Source: a virus
DNA length: 64,000 nucleotides
Virus record (IMG/VR): IMGVR_UViG_3300009702_000018
Span: 1-64,000 of that record
Direction: 5' to 3' (one strand)
The translations under genes were made by a program, and so were the position numbers. The notes beneath the pieces are model-generated. The model saw only the letters and a list, made by a program, of their open reading frames with translations, had not been told where the DNA came from and did not search any database. Positions 4,693 through 33,700 of this stretch are shown one piece after another; position 1 is the stretch's first letter; every line of letters starts with the position of its first letter.

Positions 4693-5972
4693 TGAAATAT
4701 CCAGAAGAATTCATCAATAAAATAATTCAAGGTAATTGCATTAAAGTCATGCAAGAAATCCCCGAAAATTCTATTGATTCAATTATTACAGATCCCCCAT
4801 ACGGTTTATCTTTTATGAAAAAAGAATGGGATTCTTTTAAGAAATCAAAGGGATATGAATTTCAAATAAAAAATCTTAAAATGAAAACCAATCAAACTAA
4901 ATTAGAACAAAATATGAATTTTTTATCTTGGAATGTAGCATGGATGAATGAAGCAAAGCGAGTATTAAAACCAGGTGGAATTATTCTTATATTTTCGGGT
5001 ACAAGAACACAGCATTTAACAGGAATGGCTTTGGAGTTATCGGGTTTTGTTATTGCAGATACTTTAATGTGGTTATATGGTTCTGGGTTTCCCAAAGCAA
5101 TGGAAATTGGGAAAATGATTGATAAATCTAAAAATTTAGATCGAGAAGTAGTTGAAAAAAAATATAGTTCAGATATAACAAAGGGCAATTATATTAGAGG
5201 AGGAAAGAAAAATATAAATAGAATTATAGAAAAAACAAAACCCAATAGTCAAGAAGCAATTGATTGGAATGGATATAGAACAATTGGATTGAAGCCAGCC
5301 TATGAACCTATTATTCTTGCATATAAACCTCGTGAAGGAAATTATGTAAATAATATATTAAAATATAAAACAGGTGCTTTGAATATCGATGAATGTAGAA
5401 TTGGAGGAGAAGATAAAATTAAACCTTCATACAGAATAGACAAAAAATCGACAGTAATACCAATAGATAAGAAAAAAAAATATTTAAAAGATTTAGGAAG
5501 ATTCCCATCGAATGTTATTATAAATGAAGAAGTCGCAAATCAGATAGATCAACAATCGGGTATTAAAAAAACAATAGCTCAAAAAAATTATGGGTTTAAT
5601 AAAAAACCTTTATCAAAGACAAATACTTTTGCATCAAGAGGGACATATATTCCACGAGAAGATGTGGGGGGAGCATCAAAGTTCTTTTATTGTGCCAAAG
5701 CCACCCCCCAAGAAAAAATGAATAATAATCATCCAACTGTCAAACCAATAAAATTAATGACGTGGCTATGTCAATTAACCAATTCTCCATATGAAAATGT
5801 TGTATTGGATCCATTTGCGGGATCTGGATCTACAATGATTGCTTGTATGAGAACAAAAAGAAATTTCATAGGGATTGAGAAAGAAGAAGATTATGTAAAA
5901 ATAGCAAAAGAAAGAATTCAAAAAGAAAAAAATAAAAAAGAATCAAAACGAACATTAATAAGGAAAAAATAA
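4692..5972 (+). CDS. DNA N6-A/N4-C methyltransferase (beta class)
   Basis: IITDPPYGLSFM, WLYGSGFPK, LKPAYEPI, GRFPSN, HPTVKP, DPFAGSGST. Confidence 0.92.
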   Translation: MKYPEEFINKIIQGNCIKVMQEIPENSIDSIITDPPYGLSFMKKEWDSFKKSKGYEFQIKNLKMKTNQTKLEQNMNFLSWNVAWMNEAKRVLKPGGIILIFSGTRTQHLTGMALELSGFVIADTLMWLYGSGFPKAMEIGKMIDKSKNLDREVVEKKYSSDITKGNYIRGGKKNINRIIEKTKPNSQEAIDWNGYRTIGLKPAYEPIILAYKPREGNYVNNILKYKTGALNIDECRIGGEDKIKPSYRIDKKSTVIPIDKKKKYLKDLGRFPSNVIINEEVANQIDQQSGIKKTIAQKNYGFNKKPLSKTNTFASRGTYIPREDVGGASKFFYCAKATPQEKMNNNHPTVKPIKLMTWLCQLTNSPYENVVLDPFAGSGSTMIACMRTKRNFIGIEKEEDYVKIAKERIQKEKNKKESKRTLIRKK

Positions 5973-7779: not shown

Positions 7780-8736
7780 TTGACGATGGAAATAAAAATG
7801 AAATATAATGAAATAATTAAGGGTGATTGTATAGAAATTATGAAAAATATACCCGATAATTCTATTGATATGACATTTGCTGATCCTCCTTTTAATTTGG
7901 GTAAACAATATAATGTATATGATGATACAAAAAAAACTAATGTTTATTTAGATTGGTGCAAGAGTTGGATAAATGAAATGGTTAGAATTACAAAACCTAC
8001 TGGTTCTATATTTGTACACAATATACCTAAATGGCTTACTTATTATTCAAATTTTTTAAATGAAATCGCCTATTTTAAAAATTGGCTTGTATGGGATGCA
8101 TTATCAAAACCTGCAGGAATGGGGTTACAACCTGCTCATTATGGTATATTATATTATCATAAAAGTTCAAAGAAAGCTAAATTTTATAAAACTCGATATC
8201 CACATAAACGTTGTAGTGAATGTGGTTGTCTTGAAAAACATTATGGTGGTAGCCCAGTACATCCTTTTGGTCCATTAATTTCTGATGTATGGACAGATAT
8301 TCATCGTGTGAGAGGTAAGAAAAATAGGGATAAACATCCTTGTCAACTACCAATACCACTATTAGAAAGAATTATTCTTATGGTTACAGATGAAAATGAT
8401 ATTGTATTGGATCCCTTTGTTGGTACGGGAACAACAGCTATTGCTGCTAAAAGATTGGGAAGAAGATTTATTGGAATAGATATGGATGATTCATATGTAA
8501 AAATTTCCAAAAACAAACTTGAAAAAACATCATCAAATTCTAAAGTTGGTGATGTTTGGGTTAGTTTTTATCATAATAAAATACGAACTATCAGAAATAA
8601 AGATTGGACAAAATTATCATCATATTTCCCAGTTGCTAAAGACATAAAAGATATTAATTTTAAGGTAATGAATCCAAAAGCAAGAAGTATTATATCAAAT
8701 AAAAATATACGTTTTAAAGAGGCAAAATCATATTAA
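7780..8736 (+). CDS. DNA N6-A/N4-C methyltransferase (beta class)
   Basis: FADPPFN, SDVWTDIHR, HPCQLP, DPFVGTGTT. Confidence 0.92.
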   Translation: MTMEIKMKYNEIIKGDCIEIMKNIPDNSIDMTFADPPFNLGKQYNVYDDTKKTNVYLDWCKSWINEMVRITKPTGSIFVHNIPKWLTYYSNFLNEIAYFKNWLVWDALSKPAGMGLQPAHYGILYYHKSSKKAKFYKTRYPHKRCSECGCLEKHYGGSPVHPFGPLISDVWTDIHRVRGKKNRDKHPCQLPIPLLERIILMVTDENDIVLDPFVGTGTTAIAAKRLGRRFIGIDMDDSYVKISKNKLEKTSSNSKVGDVWVSFYHNKIRTIRNKDWTKLSSYFPVAKDIKDINFKVMNPKARSIISNKNIRFKEAKSY

Positions 8737-10741: not shown

Positions 10742-11554
10742 ATGAGAAAGTATGTTAGTATTATTATTCCAGTTTATCAAACGCCCCATTATTTTGTGGA
10801 AACTGCAATTAGAAGTGCTTTATTTCAAACAGGAAATATTGAAACAGAAGTAATTTTGGTAGATGATGCAAGTACAAATAGTTGGTGGGAAAATATAGAT
10901 CAATCTTTATTAGAAGATGATAGAGTTACACTTCATCTTCTTCCTAAAAATTGTGGAGCGGGATATGCTTGGGATTATGGAATTAAAAAAGCTAAATATG
11001 ATTGGATTACTCCTTTGGCTGCTGACGATTATATTCATCCAGATAAATCAGAAATTCAATTTGCTATTATGAATGAAGCAAAAAAACAAGCCTCTCTTTC
11101 TGGGTTTAGAACTTATACATATAAAGATAATAGAATTATTAAAATCAATAATCATACACCTCCAACTTACAAAGATAATAAAAAACAATTTGAAGCATTA
11201 AGACGCAATGATTATGAAACTTGTTTTATTAAAAGTTCCACAACGCTATTTAAAAAAGAATTATATGAAAAACTTGGAGGGTTTGATTATAATTTAAGAT
11301 ATGCACAAGGACATGATTTATGGCTCAGGATGGCTAATGAAACTCTGATTATAGATGTTCCATTGCAATTACTTACTCGGAGAGAATATGATAATCAAAT
11401 AGCAAACTTGTTTCAAAATGATAAAGAAAAAAATTATGAACGCATTAGAACCATAGAATATGCTAAAATTAAATTAAAATGGGAAAAACTTCTTACTCCA
11501 ATTACAAATAGAAAAGTTAATATGGATATATTAAAAGAAGAAGGATATTTATAA
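10742..11554 (+). CDS. Family 2 glycosyltransferase
   Basis: VSIIIPVY, EVILVDDAST, LAADD, GGFD, HDLWLR. Confidence 0.9.
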   Translation: MRKYVSIIIPVYQTPHYFVETAIRSALFQTGNIETEVILVDDASTNSWWENIDQSLLEDDRVTLHLLPKNCGAGYAWDYGIKKAKYDWITPLAADDYIHPDKSEIQFAIMNEAKKQASLSGFRTYTYKDNRIIKINNHTPPTYKDNKKQFEALRRNDYETCFIKSSTTLFKKELYEKLGGFDYNLRYAQGHDLWLRMANETLIIDVPLQLLTRREYDNQIANLFQNDKEKNYERIRTIEYAKIKLKWEKLLTPITNRKVNMDILKEEGYL

Positions 11555-11566
11555 GGTTTTGCTATA

Positions 11567-12838
11567 ATGAATCAATGGTATGTAATATTTAGTCTTATAT
11601 ATAATGCTCAATATAGAGGTTATATATTATCTAAATTAAAAAAAGAATATTTTTCAGATGATTTATCTCAAAATGTTTTTCAATATATAAATGATTTATT
11701 TCTTTCTGGAAAACAAATAGATGAAAGTTTAATTAAATCTAAATTTTCCAATCATATAAATCAAATTCCATTTGATATAACATTCAATATTGATTCTTAT
11801 GAAGAATATATTTCTAATTTAAGACAAGATTATATTAATAATGAAATTTCTTATTTCGGTAAAAAAATAGTCAATTCTAAAGATATAAACGAAGAAAAAC
11901 TTCTTACAAATATAAACGAATTGATAAATAATATTTATTCTACAAAATCTATTCCTGTTAGATCTGCAGATGTTATTTTAGATAATGTTATTAATGATTT
12001 AATGTCAGATAAAAAAATTAATAATAAAATATATGGAATTGAAGAATTAGATAAACATATGGACGGATTGCATAACGGAGACTTAATTCTTGTAGCAGGA
12101 AGACCATCAATGGGGAAATCTGCTCTTACTGGTTGGATAGCAATGAAAAATGCATTAAATAAAAATGTTGTTGCTTATTTTTCATTAGAAATGAAGCCAG
12201 AAAAAATTATGTTAAGAATGTTAGCGGGAATAGCAAATATTAATTTATATAAAATGAAGCAATTCAAATCAATGTCAGATAAAGATAGATTGCCAATTTT
12301 ACAATATGTTAATAAATTAAAAGAATCTAAATTATTTATTAATCAATCTTCTGGGCTAAAATTGAATGAATTAAAATCTATTTTACAACAAATTAAGATG
12401 AAAGAAGGAAAAATAGATATTATTATAATAGACTATTTACAATTAATGGAAGGAGAAGGGATTAATGATAATACAAAAGTGAATTTTCTTTCAAAGGGAT
12501 TGAAACAAATTGCAATGGAATATGATTGCCCCGTTATTGTAGCTTCTCAATTATCAAGAAGCTGTGAAGGAAGAGACAATAAAAGACCCATTCTTTCTGA
12601 TTTAAGAGATTCTGGGGGGCTTGAACAAGATGCAGATATTGTTATTATGTTATATAGGGATTATTATTATAATCGAAACCCCGAACATAATGAATTATTA
12701 GAATTATTAGTAAGAAAATTTAGAGATGGAGAAACAGGAAAAATAATTATAAGATATGAACTCCAAAAACAAAGAATGAGTTCAATTAAAATACATAGCA
12801 AATTAGCTGAAATATCAAAACAATTTAAGTATGAGTAG
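11567..12838 (+). CDS. dnaB: Replicative DNA helicase
   Basis: AGRPSMGKS, FSLEM, IDYLQL, SQLSR, RPILSDLRDSGGLEQDAD. Confidence 0.95.
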   Translation: MNQWYVIFSLIYNAQYRGYILSKLKKEYFSDDLSQNVFQYINDLFLSGKQIDESLIKSKFSNHINQIPFDITFNIDSYEEYISNLRQDYINNEISYFGKKIVNSKDINEEKLLTNINELINNIYSTKSIPVRSADVILDNVINDLMSDKKINNKIYGIEELDKHMDGLHNGDLILVAGRPSMGKSALTGWIAMKNALNKNVVAYFSLEMKPEKIMLRMLAGIANINLYKMKQFKSMSDKDRLPILQYVNKLKESKLFINQSSGLKLNELKSILQQIKMKEGKIDIIIIDYLQLMEGEGINDNTKVNFLSKGLKQIAMEYDCPVIVASQLSRSCEGRDNKRPILSDLRDSGGLEQDADIVIMLYRDYYYNRNPEHNELLELLVRKFRDGETGKIIIRYELQKQRMSSIKIHSKLAEISKQFKYE

Positions 12839-13905: not shown

Positions 13906-14550
13906 ATGGAAATAAAAAAGTTTTATTTAAAGTATATGTTTGAAGGTTATGTTGACAATATGCCCCAATGGTTGGAGAATGTAGCTAAAAAAGAATTAGC
14001 ATATATAGATCAAAAAGGATTTAATTATCTTTATAAATTATTATTACAAAACAGAAAAAATATTAAAATAGCTGATATTGGATCTGGTGATTGTAGAATA
14101 TTTAAATCTTTACCAAATTTTTTAATAAAAAATCCTAAAATTGAAAGATATGCTTATGATATATTTACAAAAGATGAATTACCAAAGCATTTTTTAGAAT
14201 TTTTACAAGAAAACAATATACAATATCATACAATTATAAGAACAGATAAATATAATCTTGAATTAAATAAAAAATTTGATATTATTATTTGTCTTGGAAC
14301 AGATTGTCATTTAACAAATGATGAAGCAAAACAATATATTAAAGAATGTAAAAATCATTTAAGAAAAAATGGTGTATTGATTTGGCAAATATTAAGAAAT
14401 GATACAATTAGAGCTAATATAATGAAATATTTTAGTCGAATAAAATATTATACAAGAAATAAAAATTGGTATAAGGAATTTTTTAATGACGAAGGATACA
14501 AAACAAAAATCTCCAAAATCTATATCTACAAACAAATATTCAAAGATTAA
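13906..14550 (+). CDS. Class I SAM-dependent methyltransferase
   Basis: IADIGSGDC, FDIIIC, HLRKNGVL. Confidence 0.8.
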   Translation: MEIKKFYLKYMFEGYVDNMPQWLENVAKKELAYIDQKGFNYLYKLLLQNRKNIKIADIGSGDCRIFKSLPNFLIKNPKIERYAYDIFTKDELPKHFLEFLQENNIQYHTIIRTDKYNLELNKKFDIIICLGTDCHLTNDEAKQYIKECKNHLRKNGVLIWQILRNDTIRANIMKYFSRIKYYTRNKNWYKEFFNDEGYKTKISKIYIYKQIFKD

Positions 14551-15244
14551 AGATTGGTATAACAGAGAATATAGACAAAGAGGTGATGCTTTTGGAGTAA
14601 GTATAGGTGCTTATAAACAATTCCCAAGATATTTGGGTTGGGATATTGTTAAAACTGATATTAGTCATTCTGGGATACCTATTTATGTCAGTGAACAAGA
14701 AAATACAACTTATCTTGATGTCGCTTGTGGTCAAGGATATATGATGTTTTTTGCGAAACATTATGGGATAAAAAATATATATGGGGCAGATATTTCTTCT
14801 GAATCAATTAAACTTTGTAAAGAGAAAGTTAAAGATGCTCATTATAGAATTACTTCTGCAGAAAAACTATCTGGATATAAAAACAATTTTTTCGACTATA
14901 TAACTTGTATTGGATCGTTGGAGCATTTTATTGATATGAATAAAGCGTTAAAAAGAATGCATGATGTTGGTAAAACAAATTGTAAATATTGTATCCTTGT
15001 TCCTAATTCAAAATCTTGGTGGAAAAATAAAACTGAACAACGAGAAATCAACGAACGTTTTTATTCATTAAAAGAGTGGTCAAAATTATTTACAGATAAT
15101 GGATTTAATATTGTTAAAATATATAGGGATGAATGGCATATTAAAAAGCCCCAATGTTTTATTAAAAAAATATTAAATTTTCTTACACCTTTAAAATACT
15201 TTAATTCTTTTGTTTTTATATTGGAGAAAAATAATGAGAAATAA
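14486..15244 (+). CDS. Class I SAM-dependent methyltransferase
   Basis: YLDVACGQG, GADIS, FDYITCIGSLEH, VPN. Confidence 0.88.
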   Translation: MTKDTKQKSPKSISTNKYSKIKDWYNREYRQRGDAFGVSIGAYKQFPRYLGWDIVKTDISHSGIPIYVSEQENTTYLDVACGQGYMMFFAKHYGIKNIYGADISSESIKLCKEKVKDAHYRITSAEKLSGYKNNFFDYITCIGSLEHFIDMNKALKRMHDVGKTNCKYCILVPNSKSWWKNKTEQREINERFYSLKEWSKLFTDNGFNIVKIYRDEWHIKKPQCFIKKILNFLTPLKYFNSFVFILEKNNEK

Positions 15245-15797
15245 AATTAAAGATAATTTCAAAGATATTCTGACATCTATGGAAAAAGAATTAAATTTTA
15301 TAATAGATAAAGAATCAAAAAATAATACCCCTGAACGACTAACAAAGATGTATTTAAATGAATTACTTATTGGATATACTCAAAGCCCTAAACAGATATT
15401 ATCAAAAACATTTGACACAAGTTCACGAGATATGGTGGTTATTGATAATATTCCTTTTGTGTCTCTCTGCTCTCATCATTGGCTTCCGTTTATTGGTACA
15501 ATTGCGGTAGGATACATCCCTGACAAAAAAGTTGTTGGATTAAGTAAAATACCTCGAATTGTAAATTGTTTTACAAGAAGATTCCAAATTCAAGAAAATA
15601 TGACAGCACAAATAGCAGATGCAATTCAAAAATATCTTAAACCAAAAGGTTGTATTGTTATATGTAAAGCACAACATTTATGTGCTCAAATAAGAGGAGT
15701 ACAAGCACATGGAACTACAATGACCACATCAGCATTAAGAGGGGCATTTGAAGATGAAGAAATTAAAAACGAATTTATAAAATTGGCGAAACTATGA
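15234..15797 (+). CDS. folE: GTP cyclohydrolase I
   Basis: TPER, SLCSHHWLPF, GLSKIPR, QIQE, HLCAQIRG; GGAG RBS before 15234. Confidence 0.95.
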   Translation: MRNKIKDNFKDILTSMEKELNFIIDKESKNNTPERLTKMYLNELLIGYTQSPKQILSKTFDTSSRDMVVIDNIPFVSLCSHHWLPFIGTIAVGYIPDKKVVGLSKIPRIVNCFTRRFQIQENMTAQIADAIQKYLKPKGCIVICKAQHLCAQIRGVQAHGTTMTTSALRGAFEDEEIKNEFIKLAKL

Positions 15798-16120
15798 AAA
15801 ATCATACGATTTCAAATTTAATTGATAAATCTACATTGTCGTCTAAAGAAAAAAATATTATTAGAACACATATTGAGATATGTGAAGACGAAATAGATTC
15901 TTTGCGTGCTGAAATCTTATATTATAAAGATATTATTGATTATGGGAAATATATAAACAGTAATATTATGAGATTAAAAGAAGAATTATTACAGTATGTT
16001 GTTGATACTAAAGAAGATAATAAATTAAAAGAATCTTATAATATAATATTGAATTTTTCAAAACAAATTAAGGAAATGTTAAAAATAATAGATGAAACTC
16101 AAGGAAAACCGCACATTTAA
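15794..16120 (+). CDS. Hypothetical protein
   Basis: ATGA overlap with folE. Confidence 0.55.
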   Translation: MKNHTISNLIDKSTLSSKEKNIIRTHIEICEDEIDSLRAEILYYKDIIDYGKYINSNIMRLKEELLQYVVDTKEDNKLKESYNIILNFSKQIKEMLKIIDETQGKPHI

Positions 16121-16136
16121 GAATAAAAGGGAAAAT

Positions 16137-16412
16137 ATGAAAGCATATCTCAAAGATAAGAAAAACATACATTTTCTAATAATAGAAAAAATTTCAAATG
16201 GGTTTTTAATAGCTTCTTCAGATCTTGAAGGACCAATCTTAAAAATTCACAAAAGCACATTAAATGGCGTAGTTAATGTGATGGAAGAAATTTGGGATGT
16301 ATCATATATAAAAGATCCAGAATCCCCACCTCTTACATCAATTAAAAAAGAGAAAAAAGTTAAAAAACAAGCGACCAAAAAATCAAAAAGGACTAAAAAG
16401 TGTATAAAATAA
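16137..16412 (+). CDS. Hypothetical protein with Lys-rich tail
   Basis: RBS AAGGGA before 16137. Confidence 0.5.
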   Translation: MKAYLKDKKNIHFLIIEKISNGFLIASSDLEGPILKIHKSTLNGVVNVMEEIWDVSYIKDPESPPLTSIKKEKKVKKQATKKSKRTKKCIK

Positions 16413-16831
16413 TGAAGGAAATCCAATTTGATGCGGCTCATCGACTAATGAATGTAGAAAGTAAATGTTCCAACATCCACGGACATCATTATATGGTCAA
16501 ATTATATATTAAATCACAAACGCTTGATTATGCAGACATGTTATTAGACTTTGATTATTTAAAATCAATAAAAGAATGGATTGATGATAATTGGGATCAT
16601 AGCTTTATTTTGAATAAAAAAGATATTGTTAATATTAAGCATTGTGTTAAATATAATTATAAACATTTTTTATTGAATGGAGATCCAACGGCAGAAAAAA
16701 TGGCTGAATTTTTAATTAAATATTTAAGAAATTTTTTGTTAGAGATAGACAAAGAACATTTAATAAGGGCAGATAAAGTTGTAGTTTTTGAAACACCATC
16801 TTGTTCTGCAACAGCAATAAACGAAGAATAA
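16400..16831 (+). CDS. queD: 6-carboxytetrahydropterin synthase
   Basis: FDAAHRL, CSNIHGHHY, WDH, PTAE, ETP. Confidence 0.92.
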   Translation: MYKIMKEIQFDAAHRLMNVESKCSNIHGHHYMVKLYIKSQTLDYADMLLDFDYLKSIKEWIDDNWDHSFILNKKDIVNIKHCVKYNYKHFLLNGDPTAEKMAEFLIKYLRNFLLEIDKEHLIRADKVVVFETPSCSATAINEE

Positions 16832-16832
16832 A

Positions 16833-17231
16833 ATGTTAAAATTAAAGATAAAATTTAGTATTCCAGGCTTTCATTATTGGAAAAATGCTCCAAAGCAATA
16901 TGATTATTTAAGAAATCTTCATAGACATAATTTTTATTGGGAAATTATTATTGAGACTACAAATGATAGAGAAATTGAAATTATTTCATTTAACGATAGA
17001 GTACAAAGATTATTGAAGCAAGAATTTAATTTTCTTTCTGGAAATATGATAGTTAAAACAAATCCTTCACATATATATGATTTAGAATCATTATATTTTG
17101 GGGGAAAATCTTGTGAAGCAATTGCTCAAGATACATATGATTTGATTAAACAACATTATAATGATATTAAAATTAAACAAATAGCAGTATTGGAAGATAA
17201 TGAAAACGGTGCTATTAAAGAATGGGAATAA
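16833..17231 (+). CDS. QueD paralog, DpdL-like (putative CDG decarboxylase)
   Basis: GFHYW, LRNLHRHNF fitting LxxxHRHxF, DREIE, SCEAIA, EDNENGA. Confidence 0.72.
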   Translation: MLKLKIKFSIPGFHYWKNAPKQYDYLRNLHRHNFYWEIIIETTNDREIEIISFNDRVQRLLKQEFNFLSGNMIVKTNPSHIYDLESLYFGGKSCEAIAQDTYDLIKQHYNDIKIKQIAVLEDNENGAIKEWE

Positions 17232-17447
17232 TTGATAAAAATGAAGCATAATCCTTATTTCATAAATGGTTATCCCGCTGTTTGCCCAAACGAAGGAAAT
17301 GAACCTTTTTCTGAAAATAAAGATAAGTCTTCAGTTCTTTTGTGGGAAGCTTTGATTGTTTCTACATATAAAGAAAAATATCACATTGGTTATAAATGCA
17401 CTTACTGTGGTGTTAAATGGCTATTTAGAGATTTTCTTGAAGATTAG
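17232..17447 (+). CDS. Small Cys-containing hypothetical protein
   Basis: CPN...CTYC. Confidence 0.5.
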   Translation: MIKMKHNPYFINGYPAVCPNEGNEPFSENKDKSSVLLWEALIVSTYKEKYHIGYKCTYCGVKWLFRDFLED

Positions 17448-17457
17448 AAAGGAAAAT

Positions 17458-17772
17458 ATGGGTTTTTATTTTAAAAAAAGTAAAGAAAAAATGACAACGG
17501 GATTCTCTCCAATAGAAGCTCATCATTTTTATTGGGGTATCATCTTAATTTTCCTTGCATTTGCTTCTTTGTTTTGGTGGAAAGAGAATGTTGCTCAATG
17601 GACATTTGTTGTAGGAATGTGGTTCATTATTGATGATTGGATCCAACATTCAATTCAAAGATCTGAAATAAAAAAATATGGATATTATCAAACTTTAAGT
17701 TTTTGGCATTGGTTTCCATATCTTATTTTAGATTATATTAAAAAACTATTAAATAAAAAAGGTGAAAAATGA
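17458..17772 (+). CDS. Membrane protein
   Basis: Two hydrophobic segments, HHFYWG and DDWIQH motifs; AAGGA RBS. Confidence 0.65.
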   Translation: MGFYFKKSKEKMTTGFSPIEAHHFYWGIILIFLAFASLFWWKENVAQWTFVVGMWFIIDDWIQHSIQRSEIKKYGYYQTLSFWHWFPYLILDYIKKLLNKKGEK

Positions 17773-18203
17773 AGAAATTACTATTTGTTATCTTATTGTT
17801 TGTTGCTTTTCAAGCACATGCACAAGATACAACCAAAATTTTAGACTCTGTTCAATTCCCAATTGTAACTTATTATGGGACATTCAATGGACAAGATTCT
17901 GGATTAACTATTTCAACTACAGATGATTCATTGTTGGTATATCTGTATTTAGCCCCAGATAGTAATGGAGTACCAACAGGGTATCTTAATTTATCATTTA
18001 TAGGAGCCGATTGGCAGAGAACAGATACAACGATGCGTGCTGCTTGGCAGATGAAACTAACATTATCAGGAAATGATAGTTCTCAATACAAAGTTAATCC
18101 AATAGTATATGGTAAGTTAGTTAATCCTTATGATCTGAATCAAGATGGACATATTGGAGTGAGTGATTTATTTGCAGTATTAAAAAAACTTTTTAAACTA
18201 TAA
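17769..18203 (+). CDS. Secreted protein with C-terminal dockerin/EF-hand-like loop
   Basis: Signal peptide MKKLLFVILLFVAFQAHA; DLNQDGHIGVSDL. Confidence 0.7.
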   Translation: MKKLLFVILLFVAFQAHAQDTTKILDSVQFPIVTYYGTFNGQDSGLTISTTDDSLLVYLYLAPDSNGVPTGYLNLSFIGADWQRTDTTMRAAWQMKLTLSGNDSSQYKVNPIVYGKLVNPYDLNQDGHIGVSDLFAVLKKLFKL

Positions 18204-18205
18204 TT

Positions 18206-18694
18206 ATGATTTATTTTACAGCAGATCATCATTTTGGGCATACAAATATTATTAAATATTGTAATAGACCATTTAAAGATGTAGAAGAAATGAATAAAAT
18301 TCTAATTAATAATTGGAATGATACAATCTCTGACAATGATACAGTATATCATCTTGGTGATTTTGCTTTAATGAATAATAATAAAATTACAGAATATCTT
18401 AATAAATTAAGGGGAATAAAAATATTGATACTTGGGAATCACGATAGATTAAATAGAAAAAATAAGAATTTATTTAAAAATATATATAAATCTTATTCTC
18501 TATTTTATAGGGGATTGACTATTGTGCTATCTCATTATCCTTATAAATTTATTCCCCCTAATGGAGTTATTCATTTGCATGGACACTCACATGGGAAAGA
18601 AACAAAAATTAAAAACAAAATAGATGTTGGAGTGGATAATACTAATTATTACCCAATTTCTATTGATGAGGTTATTGAAAAATATGAATTTTAA
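18206..18694 (+). CDS. Calcineurin-like metallophosphoesterase
   Basis: DHHFGH, HLGD, GNHD, HYP, HGHSH, DVGVD. Confidence 0.92.
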   Translation: MIYFTADHHFGHTNIIKYCNRPFKDVEEMNKILINNWNDTISDNDTVYHLGDFALMNNNKITEYLNKLRGIKILILGNHDRLNRKNKNLFKNIYKSYSLFYRGLTIVLSHYPYKFIPPNGVIHLHGHSHGKETKIKNKIDVGVDNTNYYPISIDEVIEKYEF

Positions 18695-19082
18695 AGAATA
18701 TCAAGAAAAAGCACATGCAACAGCAGATTACCCTATGACACAAATTGTATTACCCCCTGATAAGGGAACAGACAATATGGGGAATGCTTATGTTTACAGC
18801 ACAATTCATGATGTTAATTTTATTTATCCTGCTATGGGAATTATGGGTGAAGCGGGTGAGGTAGGAGAAAAATTAAAAAAAGTTTTTAGAAATAAAAACG
18901 GGAAATTTGAAGAAGAAGATATTAAATCTATATCTAAAGAATTGGGCGATGTTATGTGGTATATTGCTGAAATAGCATCATTACTTAATTTAAATTTAGA
19001 AGATATAGCGAAAGAAAACATTGAAAAATTAGAGAGTAGATATGAAAGAAATAAAATCAAAAGCGAAGGCGACGACCGATAA
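18684..19082 (+). CDS. MazG-like NTP pyrophosphohydrolase
   Basis: GEAGEVGEKLKK, ELGDVMWY, NIEKL. Confidence 0.88.
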   Translation: MNFKEYQEKAHATADYPMTQIVLPPDKGTDNMGNAYVYSTIHDVNFIYPAMGIMGEAGEVGEKLKKVFRNKNGKFEEEDIKSISKELGDVMWYIAEIASLLNLNLEDIAKENIEKLESRYERNKIKSEGDDR

Positions 19083-19257
19083 AAAGTTAAAGAAAAATTG
19101 CAAAGTCTTTTTTGCAGATGGTACAGACTTTCTTTTTAAAGATATTTATGCAATCAATATATCAGAAAATTGGATTATGATTACATATGACCCAGATAAT
19201 GATTACAAAGTTTTTAATAGAACATTAATAAATAAAATAGAGGTTAAAAATGTATAA
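19042..19257 (+). CDS. Hypothetical protein
   Basis: ORF in operon. Confidence 0.5.
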   Translation: MKEIKSKAKATTDKKLKKNCKVFFADGTDFLFKDIYAINISENWIMITYDPDNDYKVFNRTLINKIEVKNV

Positions 19258-19579
19258 TGATACGTGGTATAAACCTATATGGTATTATCCATTTACAAAA
19301 AATCAAAAAAAAGAAATTAAATCCGTAGTGGAAGAAGTATTAAGAGAACACAAACTAATTCCAGATAAAATATGTAATTGTAAATATTGTACTACTTCCA
19401 CTACAACATTATCGATTGTTCCTGTTTTACATCAAAATTTTTCAAATGGATCATTTTATGTTAAATGCCCAGTATGTAAATTTTCCAGTCCAGAACGAAA
19501 AACCAAACAAGAAGCTGTAATGGTTTGGAACAATCTTAATTATAATAATGTTAAAACAAGTACTGTATGCTGTAAATAA
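19250..19579 (+). CDS. Zinc-finger protein, Lar-like C-terminus
   Basis: CKYC...FYVKCPVC...EAVMVWN. Confidence 0.55.
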   Translation: MYNDTWYKPIWYYPFTKNQKKEIKSVVEEVLREHKLIPDKICNCKYCTTSTTTLSIVPVLHQNFSNGSFYVKCPVCKFSSPERKTKQEAVMVWNNLNYNNVKTSTVCCK

Positions 19580-19580
19580 T

Positions 19581-20309
19581 ATGAAATATAATTTTTCAAT
19601 TTTATCACCACATCCAGACGATGAATTTATCGGTTGTAGAAAATTTATAGAAATATATGGCAACTATATTAATAATATAATTTTTCTTACAAACGGAGAA
19701 GTTAGTGTTGGCGAATTTAATGATATGGAAATGTATATTAAAGTCAGAAGAGAAGAATCAAGACTATGGATTAGTGAACATACAAAAGCAGAAATCCATT
19801 ATTTAAATGTCCCAGATAATTTAGATATTGAAGAATTGAATAATAATAAATTTGGAAAAATTTTTAAAGAATTACATAATGTACGCCCAAGTGTTTATTT
19901 AAGAAATAAAATAGAAAAGATTATAGGAGATGATATTTTATTGGTTCCATCTGCTGAAAATCATCCCTCTCATTTAATGGCATTTAATATTGCTGAAATT
20001 TTACGTAATATGAAAATATATTATGTTGTTCATAAAATATTAACTATTAAAATGAGTGAAAATTATGGATGCTATTTTAAGAAAAATGAAAATTTTGGAC
20101 TAACAAAAATTAATTATGTATATGTATATTCAGATAATGAATTATTAGAAAAACGTAAGGAATTTCAGCTATATTATAATAGTCAATATAATAACTTTTT
20201 AAAAACGGGATTAAACATATATAATTGGGAAAATTATTTAAGTCCTATTATTTTGAAACTGACAAATGAAGATAATATGTTCAAGGTTGGAGATTCAGAT
20301 GTTGACTGA
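19581..20309 (+). CDS. PIG-L/LmbE-family deacetylase-like protein
   Basis: SPHPDDE, LTNGE, RREES, HPSH. Confidence 0.78.
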   Translation: MKYNFSILSPHPDDEFIGCRKFIEIYGNYINNIIFLTNGEVSVGEFNDMEMYIKVRREESRLWISEHTKAEIHYLNVPDNLDIEELNNNKFGKIFKELHNVRPSVYLRNKIEKIIGDDILLVPSAENHPSHLMAFNIAEILRNMKIYYVVHKILTIKMSENYGCYFKKNENFGLTKINYVYVYSDNELLEKRKEFQLYYNSQYNNFLKTGLNIYNWENYLSPIILKLTNEDNMFKVGDSDVD

Positions 20310-20457
20310 TACAAAAGATCATAGAAAAAAATATAAAGAAACAATATTAAAAACAATGACAACCCATCAATTTTTTAAAGCTGTTACAGATATTCTTAAT
20401 GGGAATGCTATATATCAAAGAATTGATGGAACAATTTTGGATTTAAAAAATGAATAA
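20299..20457 (+). CDS. Hypothetical protein
   Basis: GGAG RBS before 20299. Confidence 0.45.
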   Translation: MLTDTKDHRKKYKETILKTMTTHQFFKAVTDILNGNAIYQRIDGTILDLKNE

Positions 20458-21160
20458 AAATGTAATACCAATATCAGAAATTTTTCGATCTATTCAAGGA
20501 GAAGGAACCACAGTAGGATATCCAAGTATTTTTGTTAGATTGATGTTTTGTAATGAAGCTTGTACGTTTTGTGATACTCCATATACATGGAATGCACAAT
20601 TGTATAATTTAAAAGAAGAAACAACTTTTTATACTTGTAGCGAATTATTTGTTAGAATTAATACTATGAATTTACCAAAAGCACATATTGTTTTTACCGG
20701 AGGAGAACCATTATTGCATTGGAAAAAATTACTTCCTTTAATACAAGACTTAAAAAGAAATGAATATATTATAGAAGTGGAGACAAATGGAACAATTAAA
20801 GTAAATAAAGAATTTTTTGACTTAATTGATTATTTTAATATTTCTATTAAATTAGAAAATTCAGGGAATCCATACCCAGTAAGAGTAAAAGAAAAAGCAA
20901 TTACATTTTTTGTCAACAATATTCATGATAATGTAACATTTAAATTTGTTGCTTCTTCGAATAAAGATATGAAAGAAATTATTTCATTAATTAAACTATT
21001 TAAAATTCCCTATCAAAATGTTTCCATTATGCCATTGGGAATAACTCACGATGAAATTCGCAGTAGTGTTGAAAAGATTATAGATTTATGCTTAAAATAT
21101 AATATTAGAATTACTCCCAGATTACAAGTAGATATATGGGGCGATAAACGAGGAAAATGA
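20450..21160 (+). CDS. queE: 7-carboxy-7-deazaguanine synthase (radical SAM)
   Basis: SEIFRSIQGEG, CNEACTFCDT, TGGEP, ETNG, PRLQ. Confidence 0.95.
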   Translation: MNKNVIPISEIFRSIQGEGTTVGYPSIFVRLMFCNEACTFCDTPYTWNAQLYNLKEETTFYTCSELFVRINTMNLPKAHIVFTGGEPLLHWKKLLPLIQDLKRNEYIIEVETNGTIKVNKEFFDLIDYFNISIKLENSGNPYPVRVKEKAITFFVNNIHDNVTFKFVASSNKDMKEIISLIKLFKIPYQNVSIMPLGITHDEIRSSVEKIIDLCLKYNIRITPRLQVDIWGDKRGK

Positions 21161-21393
21161 TTACTCAAAGACAAATAGATACAAACGAACATATTTTATT
21201 TGTTTTAAATAATGATTATAAAAATCATATTAAAGATAAAAATAATGTTATTTATTATTTTGATGACGTAGAAGAATCATATCAAATAATAAAAGAAAAA
21301 TTTGGACATTATTTTGCCATATATATTGACACATCCGATGCATGCGGAATTGAGATAATGAACATATTTAAAAAATCAATGGAGACAAAATGA
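21157..21393 (+). CDS. Hypothetical protein
   Basis: ATGA overlaps on both sides. Confidence 0.55.
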   Translation: MITQRQIDTNEHILFVLNNDYKNHIKDKNNVIYYFDDVEESYQIIKEKFGHYFAIYIDTSDACGIEIMNIFKKSMETK

Positions 21394-22496
21394 TATATAT
21401 TTTAGGATTGGAGCCATTAAAAGAACGATATACCGAATGGTGGGAATCTTATATTCCAAAAGAGTTTAAAAAAGTTACCAAAAATGTTTCTGTAATCGAA
21501 GGAGAAAAAATTACAGACAAAGTAGAAACAGGAACAGTTTTGGACGCATCAGGAACTAATTATTGGAAAACCACACAATTACAAAAAATAATAAAGATGT
21601 TTCATAATAAAGAAATAGAACCTTATTCTATTTTCTTTGTAACAGATATTTGGTTTCCTGGCATTGAAATGATTCGATATATGTCGACATTATATGATAT
21701 TCCAGTACATATTTGGGGAGTGTGGCATGCTGGTTCTTCAACTATGAATGATTTTGCTGAACCAATGCATTATTGGTCAAAATATTTTGAGGTTGGGTTT
21801 TTAAATATTTGTGATGGCGTATTTGTGGGATCAGATTATTCAAGAAATTCAATAATTGCTCGATTATTATATTTTCTTCCCGAATTGGAAGTAGAAAATA
21901 TTGCAAATAAAATATATGCTTATGGAATGCCTCTTGACACTACAAAAATGTCAAAATATTATTCAACTAAAAAAAATAATATTATTTTATTCCCACACAG
22001 ACCTGATGAAGAAAAAAATCCTCATATTTTTATTAATATTATCAATGCTTTAAGTATGTATTGGGATGACTTTAAAGATAATAAATTTATTTTTTGTACT
22101 TCAAAAGAAAAATATCAATCACAATCAATGTGGGTAAACGCTGCATTAGCAGAATTAATGCATAATCATCCAAATGTTATTAAACTTGAAGACCTTACAA
22201 AAGATAAATATTATAAATTATTAGCAAAATCAAAACTTGTAGTTTCTACGACATCAGAAGAAAATTTTGGGTATTGTGCTGTTGAAGCATTGTCGGTAGG
22301 GACAAAAGTGTTGTTGCCAAATAATTTTTCTCATCCAGAAATTGTTGAAAATAATCAAGATTTATTATATGATACTTATGATAATTTATTAGAAAAAATC
22401 GTAAGAGATAAAAAAATACCATCAAAAGAATTAAAAGAATATGTATTACCCTATGGACAAGTTGTTAGAAAATGGATAAGCATAATGAGGATGTAA
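21390..22496 (+). CDS. GT-B (GT4-like) phage glycosyltransferase
   Basis: RYTEWW, WHAGS, FPHR...EKNP, EX7E motif EENFGYCAVE. Confidence 0.85.
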   Translation: MIYILGLEPLKERYTEWWESYIPKEFKKVTKNVSVIEGEKITDKVETGTVLDASGTNYWKTTQLQKIIKMFHNKEIEPYSIFFVTDIWFPGIEMIRYMSTLYDIPVHIWGVWHAGSSTMNDFAEPMHYWSKYFEVGFLNICDGVFVGSDYSRNSIIARLLYFLPELEVENIANKIYAYGMPLDTTKMSKYYSTKKNNIILFPHRPDEEKNPHIFINIINALSMYWDDFKDNKFIFCTSKEKYQSQSMWVNAALAELMHNHPNVIKLEDLTKDKYYKLLAKSKLVVSTTSEENFGYCAVEALSVGTKVLLPNNFSHPEIVENNQDLLYDTYDNLLEKIVRDKKIPSKELKEYVLPYGQVVRKWISIMRM

Positions 22497-22497
22497 A

Positions 22498-22638
22498 ATG
22501 GAAATATTAACAACTATAATGATAATTTTTTTGATAATTATTGTTGGATCGTTTGTATTACTTCTTATGGGATTTACAATATTAGTATTAACAGAAATAA
22601 TTAGAGATACATTTGGCAAAAATAATTTTGATATTTAA
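22498..22638 (+). CDS. 46-aa single-pass membrane peptide (absent from ORF track)
   Basis: MEILTTIMIIFLIIIVGSFVLLLMGFTILVLTEIIRDTFGKNNFDI; GAGG upstream; fills the gap. Confidence 0.6.
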   Translation: MEILTTIMIIFLIIIVGSFVLLLMGFTILVLTEIIRDTFGKNNFDI

Positions 22639-22646
22639 GGTAAAAA

Positions 22647-23846
22647 ATGTTTAATACTGGATTTAAAAGTGCTTATGTTCCTGCACTTCTCACAGGAATT
22701 GAAAATGTAATTAGAAGATGTATAATTCCAGGCAATATATTTGGATTATATAAAGATAAATATGATGTTTCTTGGTTTACCGATCGTGCGATCTTTACGC
22801 ACCCACATGTTTTAATTTCATATTATTATTCGGGAAGATTTGCAAATTATAGAAAAGAATTAAGAATAAAAGATGATATTACTTTATGGGCAGATTCAGG
22901 GGGATATAGTGTAGCAACAAAAGGAGCAAAAATAGATCCCCATGAGGTATTAAAATGGCAAGAGAGGAATTCTAATATTGCTTTTACCTTAGATTATCCC
23001 CCAACAAAAGTTACATCTGTAGGAAGAGTATCTCCTGGAAAAAATGAACGAATGACTCCCGAAGAATTTGAAGAATGTGCAGAAAAAACAAGAAAAAATA
23101 ATTTAATATTTTATAATGATAGAACGAGTGATAAATTAAAAATATATAATATTATTCATGGGTATAATCTTGAAAGTTATGATTTATGGTGGGATTATAC
23201 ATCTAAAGATATGAAATTTGATGGCTATGGAACGGGGATGAAACCTACAAGCGATTGTTTATTACAAGCTCTGTCAATTATGTATTTATGGGATAAGGGA
23301 GTTAGAGAAAGGATTCATTTATTGGGTGTTTCGGGGATAACTGTAATTCCTGTTTTAATTTGGGCATCACAATATATTGATAAAATTTCATTTGATTCTA
23401 CTTCTTATGGATATGGATCAAGAACAAGAGCTTATGTTTATCCTGATAGAATAAGATACTATACTCATTTTGGGAAAAAATATGTTACAAAGAATAAACC
23501 AATGGAAAAAATATATTGTAATTGTCCCATTTGTAAAGATTTTGATGATCCATCTTATTTTATAGGGGGAGGAACAACAATGCCTGGAATGCTATTAGCA
23601 TTACATAATCTATGGGCAGTTAAACAATATGTTGAATTATTAGATAAAACAATTAATGAAGATAAAGATAAAAAAAGATTTTTTGAACTTATAAAACAAC
23701 ATACGGGAAATAGAGCAGACGAATCTATTCATGCCATTAATTTTATTGAAGATGTTGTAAAAATTGGATTAAAAAAAAGCTATGATATTTATTTTTCAAC
23801 ACATAATTTCGATAAACAAAAATTAAAACCTAAAACTTTGTTATGA
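22647..23846 (+). CDS. TGT-fold transglycosylase, DpdA-like
   Basis: DSGGYS, LDYPP, IIHG, IHLLG, SFDST, Zn site CNCPIC...HN. Confidence 0.85.
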   Translation: MFNTGFKSAYVPALLTGIENVIRRCIIPGNIFGLYKDKYDVSWFTDRAIFTHPHVLISYYYSGRFANYRKELRIKDDITLWADSGGYSVATKGAKIDPHEVLKWQERNSNIAFTLDYPPTKVTSVGRVSPGKNERMTPEEFEECAEKTRKNNLIFYNDRTSDKLKIYNIIHGYNLESYDLWWDYTSKDMKFDGYGTGMKPTSDCLLQALSIMYLWDKGVRERIHLLGVSGITVIPVLIWASQYIDKISFDSTSYGYGSRTRAYVYPDRIRYYTHFGKKYVTKNKPMEKIYCNCPICKDFDDPSYFIGGGTTMPGMLLALHNLWAVKQYVELLDKTINEDKDKKRFFELIKQHTGNRADESIHAINFIEDVVKIGLKKSYDIYFSTHNFDKQKLKPKTLL

Positions 23847-30263: not shown

Positions 30264-30734
30264 TGGAAATATTTTTAAAAATCCTATATATCCCTTTACC
30301 CACATTCTAACATATTTCATATCTATATTTGGGCAAGTTTTTCCTTGAGCTTTACCCGTTGGTGTCTCATAATGTCCCAATAATCTATTGATAGGTAACT
30401 TATATTCAATTAACAAATGAGCTAATAATTTGAAAGTCATATGTAATTCCATAAAAGGGAAATATTTTATACCAATCATACAAACACCAATTGAATGTTT
30501 ATTCATCCCTTTTACATGTGCCCCAATTTCAGAATCTTTTCTACCTTTTTCTACAACTCCCACTTCTGCTCTTTTCTGATGAATATATTGATGATAAGTT
30601 CTATAACCATTTAAAACAACATAATGATAACCAATTTTTTTCCAACCCCTTGCTTTATGCCAAGCATCTATTACTTTGGCATCACCCCATTCCGAATCAC
30701 TGCAGTGAAGAATTATATAATTTATTCTCCTCAT
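30243..30734 (-). CDS. Endolysin, N-acetylmuramoyl-L-alanine amidase (Amidase_2, T7-lysozyme-like)
   Basis: ILHCSD, WH...RGW...IGYHY, GAHVKG, SIGVC, GH, KTCP. Confidence 0.92.
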   Translation of the reverse strand: MRRINYIILHCSDSEWGDAKVIDAWHKARGWKKIGYHYVVLNGYRTYHQYIHQKRAEVGVVEKGRKDSEIGAHVKGMNKHSIGVCMIGIKYFPFMELHMTFKLLAHLLIEYKLPINRLLGHYETPTGKAQGKTCPNIDMKYVRMWVKGYIGFLKIFPSKFVQK

Positions 30735-33700
30735 ATTGTACCACCATCAAGAGCAGTCCAAGAAAACTTGCCTATTGCACTATCTTTTAATAATACACTT
30801 ATTGCCGAAGTAGAATAAGTAATTTTATGAGGATAAAGATAGGCGAACGTTGAAGCATTATAATATTCCAAACCCAACATCACAGTAATTGATCTTGCAT
30901 TATTAAATGCCGAATCTGCAAATTGCATAGTAAATGTTGGATTTGTTTTTGGTGGAACATCACGATATTCCCCAGTAATATAGTTCCATGATGCACTATC
31001 AAAAGTTGAAGTTGCAACACTGGTTGCCCACAATTTAACAAGACAACCTGGATACCTAAGGTTAGGAGCTTCTATACTCAAACCATATTCAAAACTTCCA
31101 TATATAGATTGTGATGTTGATGATAATGAAGTAGCACCAAAAGTTGAACTATCAGAAGTATCATATATTTTCAGATAATCTCTATGAATTAAACCATTTT
31201 CTATATTTAAAGTATCTATTGTTTCATCTGTAAAACTAGATGCTTTTTCTTCATATAATATAGCATTGGCAATAAATCCTTTTGGAGTAGAACTACTAAT
31301 CCAATATTTAAGTTTCTGTGGATAAATACTTGCAAGACTATATGTTGAAGGTAATCCTGCAGTACTAAAAGTAATAGCATCTTGCGGAGAGATAATAATC
31401 ATAGGAGATTTAGGACTACCAAGCCATTCATAAAATCTTGAACCATATGATTGTGTTTCACCAAATATTCCAATTCCTTGTTCTATATGTTTTGTATAAT
31501 TCCACCCCGAACCAGTATCCATACCAGGAGCATGCCAATGAAAATTACTACTGGATAATAAAGCAAAAGAATGACTGGTATCTTCTTGTCCAATCACAAT
31601 TCTATTGGCGTCAGATTCATCTCCACTAACAATTAATTCTCCAGCATATAAATGCCGTCCGATCAAAGATTCAAATGCTACCGCATTTCCTCCCACACTA
31701 TTTCTTCCTAAATTGCCTTCTCCCACAAAATATCCTTCTGAAAATTCTGTTGCAGAAGTTCCTTCTTCTACTTGAATACCATCGATCATATACATACCAG
31801 GAGAATGATTATTGGTAAAAGACATTTTCCAATATCTAGATTTTTTATAATCAGAAAGCGAAGTTGAAATTGTTGTGGCATATCTTATCCATGTATTACC
31901 ATCAATTCCTATTGCGGTTGTATTTTGATAATCTAATGCCGAACTTGCACTAAAGGTTCCAATATGTTTCCATCTGGCATCTAAAAATTCAATATCAAAA
32001 CTGTTTACTGGCTTAAAATTAGAATATAATAAATTATACCAACTTATTGTTAATGGAATTGAAGTATCATTAATACTAACATATTCATATACAAGTTTGT
32101 CTCCTAATATTCCATATACAGATCTATGTCCCATAAATCTGTGAGTAGTAGTTGAAACTAATGTTCCCGATATATGTACAGAAGACCAATATAATGGAAA
32201 TTGAGTATTATAATCTAATACTTCAAAACTTCCATTGGCTACTTTGTTTTTTGTGTTAAATTCAAAAGGTTGTCTATAGCTATGAGTAGAAGCGACTTCA
32301 CTGGCGGGAGACAAATTCCCAAAATTATCTTTTCCTCTAATGGTATATTTATACAATGAATTATTCTCTAATCCTACATCATCAGTAAAAGTAACAATAT
32401 CTGCATTCACATGAGCATCTTGTTCACCAATCAAAACATCTTTTGATATCGTTAAACTGGAATCATTGAATAAGGTTTTATAAGATAAATAATCTTGTTT
32501 CACATCAGCAGAAGACCATATTGTTTTATCTATTCTAAAGTTTTGAATAATACCATTTGCCCCATATCCACTAACTGCTGCATTCATTCCCACATAAAAA
32601 CTAGAATAAGGAGTACTACAATAATAAGTAACCGCTGAATCAGATCTTATACCATTTACATATAAATATGATCTTACAGTATCCCATGTAGCCACAAGAT
32701 GAATTGGGTTTCCAGTGGAATAAGCAGTTGCAAATGAAATTAAACCCTGTTGTCCAGCACCATATGTCCCAAATCTAAATCCAACTGTCTTACGAGCATA
32801 TAAATTCATATAATATCCATCACCTACAGAGGGAGTTTGCCATAAAACTTTAAAATCATTTCCTGTATTATAATCAAGATTTGGAGAATACCATAATCTA
32901 ATAGTTCCACATTCTTGATTTAATATGTCTGAACTACTTGTATATGTTAGTCCTGTTACTCCGCCACTGGTACTAACAAATCCAGGACAATATGGTAATC
33001 CACCAGCAATTTGAATACCTGCTATGTCCATATACAATTTATTAGTATCAACATTGCCAATTATTGTATTAATATTTGTATAAATAGGATCGATAAAAGA
33101 TTGATATAATGAATATCTTGCCCAAGAAGTAGTAAGAGTAAAAATAGCCGATGATAAAATTGTTCCACAATTTAATGTTAATTTAAATTGTTGTTCTGGT
33201 AATGGGCTTTTTGCCCAAATCGCTGCTACCCAATCCGTTTCTGATCCTCTATCGATAGAAGAACTTATGGCGCCACTTGAACCCTTTGTTACATCTAAAT
33301 GTGCATATCCAGTATTTGAAAATAAAGAATAACCAGAGATAGTAGAATAATGCGTTTTTGTAAGATTCCATGAAGCTGTGTCAGGATATAATGTGGGATT
33401 AGAAAATTCATTTGTTGCAGAATCAAGACATTCAATTCCATAATCAAATCTAATTTGATTTGGGGCATTTGCACTGGAATAATATCTTATTTGTCCATAT
33501 TCATGACTTGCTTGTTTTGTACCAGTATAATCTTTGCTATTATTTTCAAAATAAGTTTGAAACCCAGTTAAATGATTTCTGTCTACTTCATATTTATAAA
33601 ATAATTTAGCAACAACTTTGTCATTTGTGGAAGTTGAAAATATATAATGTTCTCCTAATTGCCCATAATGTACTCCATCAAATAAATATGAAGATGCTGG

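Follow-up and report, generated by a model that had tools for sequence, protein, structure and literature searches.

A QueC-less, DpdL-type 7-deazaguanine operon with a putative two-enzyme sugar module in a tailed phage genome

Which base may replace guanine in the DNA of the phage represented by the IMG/VR viral record IMGVR_UViG_3300009702_000018, and could a glycosyltransferase and a deacetylase take part in making it? The question is raised by the first 64 kb of this 103,045-bp record (hereafter the window), where genes for 7-deazaguanine synthesis, from FolE to a gene of the tRNA-guanine transglycosylase (TGT) fold (15210-23846), are interspersed with genes for a GT4 glycosyltransferase and a PIG-L deacetylase. 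All genes of the cluster are on the plus strand, within the replication module. The genome has direct terminal repeats and ~27% G+C, and its gene content (major head protein, portal, large terminase, ribonucleotide reductase, DNA polymerase III (Pol III) alpha, DnaB, DnaG and RecA) is that of a tailed phage. We give about an even chance to reading the cluster as a DNA-modification operon of the DpdL type that makes a 7-deazaguanine without QueC and includes a sugar module of two enzymes, in which case glycosylation would precede insertion of the base. The genes on which this reading is built are the following.

15210-15797, plus strand: FolE, GTP cyclohydrolase I (GTP to 7,8-dihydroneopterin triphosphate, H2NTP), TTG start; PF01227 204 bits, NCBIfam FolE model above cut-off
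16400-16831, plus strand: QueD, 6-carboxytetrahydropterin (CPH4) synthase; PF01242 104 bits, TIGR03367 87 bits, CxxxHGH motif present as CSNIHGH
16833-17231, plus strand: DpdL-type QueD paralog with YLRNLHRHNF; PF01242 at 24.7 bits (cut-off 22.4)
19548-20309, plus strand: metal-dependent de-N-acetylase of the PIG-L/LmbE type, full length and stand-alone; PF02585 at 36.8 bits (cut-off 28.2)
20450-21160, plus strand: QueE, radical S-adenosylmethionine (SAM) synthase of 7-carboxy-7-deazaguanine (CDG); PF04055 and PF13353, best NCBIfam matches QueE models
21390-22496, plus strand: GT4 glycosyltransferase of GT-B fold with an E-x7-E motif; PF00534 42.2 bits against a cut-off of 26.4
22647-23846, plus strand: predicted DpdA2-like DNA-guanine transglycosylase with DSGG, CNCPIC and a later His (Zn site); PF01702 only 19 bits

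Genes were called from Pfam, NCBIfam and PHROGs matches together with direct reading of the translations. Every gene named in the original prediction, which had proposed a 7-deazaguanine decorated by glycosylation, deacetylation and perhaps methylation, was present at its place. Its observations therefore stood; of its interpretation, the link of GT4 and PIG-L to the pathway came out strong and that of two methyltransferases weak, as set out below.

FolE, QueD and QueE make CDG from GTP, and all three are encoded in the cluster, with all scores of QueE against the NCBIfam QueE models lying below their equivalog cut-offs. The canonical QueD keeps its CSNIHGH motif, whereas the neighbouring paralog matches the published DpdL signature. 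DpdL was defined by LxxxHRHxF in place of the CxxxHGH of QueD and is predicted to be a CDG decarboxylase yielding 7-deazaguanine (Hutinet, Cui et al., Nucleic Acids Research 2023, PMC10516641); the account of this enzyme in the original prediction agrees with this, as a published prediction only. The gene context is also that of DpdL, as FolE, QueD, QueE and DpdA are encoded together and QueC is absent. No QueC (PF06508) was found in the complete 103,045-bp genome, in four related viral records or, by phmmer, in any of 165 viral loci with flanks of up to 10 kb, of which 85 were anchored on GT4 and 80 on DpdL (profile A2). The only match to a QueF model in the genome was FolE itself. A dedicated search for a glutamine amidotransferase was not made, and a Gat-QueC fusion is impossible where QueC is missing. 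The QueC-less, DpdL-type pathway that had been proposed from the window is therefore borne out over the rest of the genome, and the conserved DpdL motif argues against a route to 7-cyano-7-deazaguanine (preQ0). Two QueE-like radical-SAM genes were seen in some of the fetched loci (L014 9349-9969; L119 3-467 and 6619-7398), one of the two directly upstream of GT4, and a separate QueE-like BLAST cluster was present in 16 loci.

The last gene of the cluster sits beside the Pol III alpha gene. Its product was modelled by AlphaFold from a 33-sequence alignment (predicted local distance difference test, pLDDT, 91; predicted template modelling score, pTM, 0.90) as a TGT barrel followed by a Zn subdomain and a helical tail, which bears out the TGT TIM-barrel fold. 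Compared with archaeal and bacterial TGT (arcTGT and bTGT), the model reached template modelling (TM) scores of 0.55-0.6 at 13-17% identity (Foldseek E 4e-11 to 1e-9), and D83, D116 and D250 are invariant in the transglycosylase alignment (A3). By hhalign the family matched DpdA2 of Vibrio phage nt-1 with a probability of 99.6% (E 1.3e-23, 212 columns), and nt-1 DpdA2 is a validated DNA enzyme (PMC10516641). Membership in DpdA3, the type of phiST and of Campylobacter phages, was considered and rejected, the hhalign probability against phiST DpdA3 (CGPG_00065) being 2%. Judged from the profiles and the model, the enzyme is of the phage DpdA2-like type, neither a DpdA3 nor a typical tRNA TGT; the DpdA-type assignment of the original prediction is sustained by the nt-1 match, and a grouping with tRNA TGTs was not seen. 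A DNA rather than a tRNA target is predicted, given that no Pfam match beyond PF01702 was obtained (PUA was not examined directly), that no tRNA genes were found in the phage genome, and that the gene is placed in the replication module next to Pol III alpha. A ParB_N-domain protein of ~220 amino acids occurs in 30 of the 165 loci (e.g., L014 11922-12635 and L020 13040-13699); in L014 its gene lies directly 3' of DpdA. The protein is reminiscent of DpdB, which in bacteria is the ParB-like partner of DpdA. No such protein is encoded in the window phage genome, even with heuristic filters off.

The GT4 product was modelled with a pLDDT of 94 as a GT-B fold of two Rossmann domains. The nearest solved folds were GlgM, MshA, GlgA and BshA, with TM scores of 0.70-0.72 to MshA, BshA and GlgA. 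The E-x7-E motif corresponds to E291 and E299, of which E299 is invariant and E291 nearly so among 34 homologs (alignment A1). The N-terminal, acceptor-binding half of the phage GT4 matched no known family. Orthology to QTMAN, the enzyme that mannosylates queuosine, was rejected, as no QTMAN_N domain (PF12038) was detected in the genome at a threshold as loose as E <= 10. A scan of 185,579 prokaryote species, with one genome apiece, gave only six partial matches to the family, confined to the C-terminal domain, so that the family appears to be essentially phage-specific. The PIG-L enzyme found no match in a sequence search of the PDB, and its residues P21, H22, D24, D25, H139 and H142, which belong to PHxDD and HxxH, did not vary among 19 homologs, both fused and free (A4). 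The pairing of a GT4 enzyme with a subsequent LmbE-type deacetylase is established for MshA/MshB, BshA/BshB and PIG-A/PIG-L, in which N-acetylglucosamine (GlcNAc) is transferred and then de-N-acetylated. From this precedent and from the fold neighbours MshA, BshA, GlgM and GlgA, the two genes are read as a module that would add an N-acetylhexosamine and expose its amine.

Whether this module belongs to the deazaguanine pathway was judged from other phages. A tblastn search of the phage collection gave homologs of GT4 in just 18 records, and in all four that were inspected the gene lay inside a deazaguanine cluster. The gene order is DpdA-GT4-DpdL-QueE in Acidovorax phage ACP17 and DpdA-GT4-DpdL, with QueE farther on, in Pseudomonas phage PA5oct. 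Xanthomonas phage X1 encodes FolE, a PP-loop protein, PIG-L, a small open reading frame (ORF), GT4, TGT, DpdL and QueE, and Burkholderia phage BCSR5 has the same gene set. GT4, DpdL and DpdA are also carried by a second cultured Xanthomonas phage, BUDD. A single-sequence scan of viral contigs with GT4 gave no match, and an alignment profile was required: the profile built from the 34 homologs matched 217 viral contigs, from which 80 loci were fetched.

Hidden Markov models (HMMs) built from the proteins of the window were run over all ORFs of the fetched loci. The 85 GT4-anchored loci contained DpdL in 73 cases, FolE in 60, QueE in 57 and QueD in 49; exact LxxxHRHxF was present in 70 of the 73 DpdL homologs, and none of these overlapped with the QueD matches. 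A DpdA-like gene, falling into two BLAST clusters, was present in 77 of the 85, and a PIG-L homolog in 30. In 20 loci PIG-L and DpdL form a single ORF, with PIG-L as the N-terminal ~140 amino acids and DpdL as the C-terminal part. In the reverse direction, GT4 was found in 58 of the 80 DpdL-anchored loci, and in 26 of 34 where at least 4 kb was available on both sides. Across the 143 GT4-bearing loci, the median gap was 260 bp from GT4 to DpdA and 401 bp from GT4 to DpdL; in 63 of 130 loci, GT4 was separated from DpdA by no more than 200 bp, and the two genes often overlapped. The co-occurrence in both scans (73/85 and 58/80), the 20 fusions and the phage-only GT4 family cannot be explained by chance. 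With deazaguanine genes in about 130 of the 143 fetched GT4-bearing loci, and with the variation of the transglycosylase described below, the tie of GT4 and PIG-L to the deazaguanine pathway that had been proposed from one genome is strongly supported by gene neighbourhoods.

In about 19 loci PIG-L is flanked, upstream of GT4, by a PP-loop ATPase of 170-200 amino acids with an SGGKDS motif (L005 6332-6865, which is X1; L016 8448-9053; L027 8200-8787) and by a protein of ~140 amino acids (c14). The arrangement resembles that of mycothiol synthesis at its ligase step, and the freed amine of the sugar could be joined in this way to the carboxylate of CDG as an amide. Neither gene was found in the window phage genome, even with heuristic filters off.

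The presence of GT4 also goes with the type of transglycosylase. DpdA-like ORFs were assigned to the type whose HMM matched them best, and the 130 GT4-bearing loci divided into 53 with the DpdA type of the window and 77 with a second type that is likewise not DpdA3; DpdA3 was found in none. DpdL loci lacking GT4 had DpdA3 in 14 of 19 (Fisher p 7e-16 against 0/130), a value that overstates independence, as related phages share labels. Among the exceptions, L163 and L165 are loci cut close to DpdL. The DpdL tree, made by a quick method from 106 columns, is poorly resolved (74 of 138 inner branches open) and was used solely for a lower bound on label changes. The GT4-less rows are scattered on it, and its well-supported branches force at least four changes of the GT4 label; therefore, the co-variation is not the effect of one lineage. 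Cellulophaga phage phiST served as a control: it has FolE, QueD, QueE, DpdL, MazG and DpdA3, and neither GT4 nor PIG-L was found by HMM in all six frames. Plain deoxy-7-deazaguanosine (dDG) has been measured in the DNA of this phage (PMC10516641).

These results are consistent with the following pathway. FolE, QueD and QueE would convert GTP to CDG, which would be processed by DpdL, presumably by decarboxylation to 7-deazaguanine. With a nucleotide sugar as donor, the phage-specific GT4 would attach an N-acetylhexosamine to the base or to a precursor of it, and the PIG-L/LmbE enzyme would take off the acetyl group, leaving a free amine. Finally, the DpdA2-like transglycosylase would exchange guanine in the phage DNA for the finished base, and the sugar would persist in the DNA of the virion. 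Glycosylation is placed before insertion because the DpdA type switches with GT4 and because PIG-L is fused to DpdL, an enzyme predicted to act on the free base. Two weaker arguments point the same way, namely that the GT4 family is acidic (median isoelectric point, pI, 5.75), like DpdL and PIG-L and the biosynthetic enzymes in general, with DpdA basic, and that the nearest solved folds are GT4 enzymes acting on small molecules.

Several points weigh against this reading. The pI and fold-neighbour arguments are weak. Neither 7-deazaguanine nor CDG offers an ordinary hydroxyl acceptor, which leaves the attachment atom unexplained. As only one GT4 locus in three or so has PIG-L, an N-acetyl sugar would not be general to the GT4 family. 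As the phage lacks the PP-loop and c14 genes, its cassette may be incomplete or work differently. Three DpdL loci (L094, L106 and L167) have a non-DpdA3 transglycosylase and no GT4, and the shared labels of related phages reduce the weight of the Fisher test.

The alternative that survives best, still unlikely in our view, is that DpdA inserts 7-deazaguanine or CDG first, after which GT4 would glycosylate the base in the polymer and PIG-L would trim it on DNA, much as the T4 glucosyltransferases act on 5-hydroxymethylcytosine (5-hmC) and QTMAN and QTGAL on tRNA queuosine. The closeness and frequent overlap of GT4 and DpdA fit such a coupled pair, and QTMAN (GTDC1) is a precedent for glycosylation of a 7-deazaguanine nucleoside within a polymer (PMC11755703). 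However, if the same base were inserted with and without GT4, the type of DpdA would have no need to vary with it. The fusion of PIG-L to DpdL, the acidity of the GT4 family and the missing QTMAN_N domain likewise speak against this alternative, and 7-deazaguanine in DNA has no hydroxyl to receive a sugar.

Somewhat less probable again is that the sugar is transient or is carried by another molecule, GT4 and PIG-L acting on a pterin or deazapurine intermediate and the final base in DNA being plain dDG or its 7-carboxy counterpart, dCDG. The sugar would then be a handle or an activating group, or the product a glycosylated pterin by-product. Pterins are made by FolE and by enzymes of the 6-pyruvoyltetrahydropterin synthase (PTPS) family, and a pterin-glycosylating GT4, UDP-glucose:tetrahydrobiopterin glucosyltransferase (9v0l, 9v0w), is among the fold neighbours of the phage GT4, but its match is no better than those to dozens of other GT4 enzymes. 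DpdL and DpdA of ACP17 alone gave no dDG in Escherichia coli, and the authors suggest that other enzymes may be needed (PMC10516641), a result compatible with a need for GT4. Against this stands phiST, which makes dDG with neither GT4 nor PIG-L, and the DpdA type, by varying with GT4, speaks for a different inserted substrate.

Other genes in and near the cluster bear on the pathway less directly, and two of them had been assigned a part in it.

10742-11554, plus strand: GT2 (GtrB-like) glycosyltransferase; PF00535 78 bits, phrog_841; 10 kb upstream
13906-14550, plus strand: MT1, weakly matched class-I SAM methyltransferase; only Methyltransf_11 passes its Pfam cut-off (25.4 vs 21.2 bits)
14486-15244, plus strand: MT2, class-I SAM methyltransferase; Methyltransf_11 62 bits, overlapping the FolE start by 35 nt
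17356-17772, plus strand: two-helix membrane protein, a small ORF interrupting the cluster
17769-18203, plus strand: small secreted protein; its signal peptide ends in AHAQ, and its C terminus has a dockerin- or EF-hand-like repeat
18206-18694, plus strand: metallophosphoesterase-like protein
18624-19082, plus strand: MazG-like nucleotide pyrophosphohydrolase; PF03819 39.6 bits

The role given to the methyltransferases in the original prediction was not supported by the comparison of loci. Across the 165 loci, MT1 has a single homolog, which is 30% identical and lies next to QueE in the sister phage L008; for MT2, none of the loci gave a significant homolog. Searches of the PDB with the methyltransferases returned generic class-I enzymes only, the neighbours of MT2 being generic small-molecule methyltransferases. 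Both are probably not core parts of the system, as far as gene conservation can tell: the membership of MT1 is doubtful, and MT2 is probably a lineage-specific addition. Should they nevertheless take part, their most probable task would be to N-methylate the freed amine. The GT2, metallophosphoesterase-like and MazG-like genes had gone unmentioned in the prediction. GT2 is absent from L008 and has homologs in L067 and L009, in the latter directly after GT4; a second sugar step by this enzyme is possible and weakly supported. The MazG-like gene has homologs in five other loci and could be an accessory, for example by depleting dGTP. The membrane and secreted proteins (17356-17772 and 17769-18203) were set aside as pathway parts on account of their predicted location, and the latter, in the middle of a modification operon, is probably a moron. 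The remaining small ORFs inside the cluster had no homolog in any fetched locus.

Such small unrelated genes, the resemblance of GT2 to GtrB-type O-antigen conversion enzymes and the poor conservation of the methyltransferases would suit an ordinary dDG or preQ0 system, with QueC perhaps supplied by the host to complete preQ0, standing beside unrelated genes of host envelope or protein glycosylation, but this is very improbable, being largely refuted by the two-way co-occurrence, the fusions and the phage-only GT4 family, and its preQ0 form being at odds with the conserved DpdL motif.

Returning to glycosylation before insertion, the chemical outcome can be proposed more tentatively, at rather less than even confidence: guanine would be replaced by an amino-sugar 7-deazaguanine in this phage and in well over a hundred others, including ACP17, PA5oct, X1 and BCSR5, and the boldest version of this proposal is a C-glycoside. 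In it, decarboxylation of CDG by DpdL would generate a C7 nucleophile that attacks the sugar activated by GT4, giving a C-glycosidic 7-(hexosaminyl)-7-deazaguanine, the amine of which might be N-methylated by both methyltransferases in this phage.

The closest known system is that of phiST, which shares the QueC-less precursor pathway, a DpdL with LxxxHRHxF, a nearby MazG-like gene (beside DpdL in phiST) and the location in the replication module (PMC10516641), and which differs in having neither GT4 nor PIG-L and a short DpdA3 unmatched by the window enzyme. The DpdA2 enzymes of Vibrio phages nt-1 and VH7D insert preQ0, 7-aminomethyl-7-deazaguanine (preQ1) and, weakly, CDG into DNA. That of nt-1 shares with the window enzyme the catalytic barrel, DSGG, both further catalytic aspartates and the Zn site, at only ~20% identity, and nt-1 has QueC and ArcS, with no DpdL or GT4. 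With MshA/MshB, BshA/BshB and PIG-A/PIG-L, the module shares a retaining GT4 with E-x7-E followed by a zinc deacetylase with PHxDD and HxxH. The PP-loop ATPase in part of the GT4 family takes the position of the ATP-dependent ligases MshC and BshC; the window, unlike mycothiol and bacillithiol synthesis, has no ligase-like gene. The acceptor would also differ, being presumably a deazapurine or a pterin instead of inositol phosphate or malate.

QTMAN belongs to the GT4 family and QTGAL to the GT2 family, a pair of types that is also present in the window. The products of QTMAN (GTDC1) and QTGAL (B3GNTL1), manQ and galQ in vertebrate tRNA, are the sole described sugar-bearing 7-deazaguanine derivatives in nucleic acid (PMC11755703). 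Their target is RNA, in contrast to that predicted here, and their sugar is carried by the cyclopentenediol hydroxyl of queuosine, which the window pathway cannot make. The T4-type DNA glucosyltransferases are alike in being phage GT-B fold enzymes that decorate a non-canonical DNA base as a counter-defence. They differ in belonging to other GT families and in acting after replication on a pyrimidine with a hydroxymethyl acceptor; no hydroxymethylase-type gene was found among the Pfam-scanned ORFs, which covered most of the window and only 10 ORFs of the last 39 kb.

To our knowledge, eight 7-deazaguanine derivatives occur in phage DNA, none of them with a sugar, and sugars are known on DNA pyrimidines and on tRNA queuosine. 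No description of a sugar-linked deazaguanine in DNA, or of a GT4/PIG-L module, was found in full-text literature searches. The main text of the 2023 Nucleic Acids Research paper does not mention a glycosyltransferase (PMC10516641). According to a preprint of 2025, the DNA of PA5oct resists enzymes with G in their sites, and the phage has QueE and PTPS genes; the base was not identified (PMC12191111). A glycosylated deazapurine, if true, would be a new class of DNA hypermodification, and no purine carrying a sugar would have been described in DNA before it. The failure of ACP17 DpdL and DpdA to make dDG in E. coli would then have a concrete reason, and an identity would be suggested for the modified G of PA5oct. 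Such a base would also matter for restriction evasion, for nucleases and glycosylases that detect phage DNA in a modification-dependent way, and for the sequencing of such genomes. As the module is present in cultured phages, the question is directly testable by nucleoside mass spectrometry.

A megablast search of the phage collection gave no close relatives of the region at the DNA level. The sister phage L008, a 111-kb contig, has the same gene order, with GT4 53%, DpdA 59% and Pol III alpha 51% identical, and both phages have a stand-alone, full-length PIG-L.

Upstream of the operon, four DNA methyltransferase genes are encoded on the plus strand (668-1795, 3544-4233, 4692-5972 and 7780-8736), one of the Dam/D12 class and three of the N6_N4 class; therefore, methylation would be stacked onto guanine replacement in this phage. 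An ORF of 417 amino acids (2259-3512, plus strand) encodes the catalytic domain of a class II alanyl-tRNA synthetase (PF01411, E 4e-164) without the C-terminal editing and C-Ala parts. Three successive giant ORFs of 1524, 1648 and 1851 amino acids (30731-46186, minus strand) open a minus-strand, largely structural block. L171 carries at 10878-12477 (genome 94878-96477, plus strand) a JAB-like protein, by a weak match, adjoining a ThiF/E1-like protein, which together would form a ubiquitin-like conjugation or deconjugation pair in a phage.

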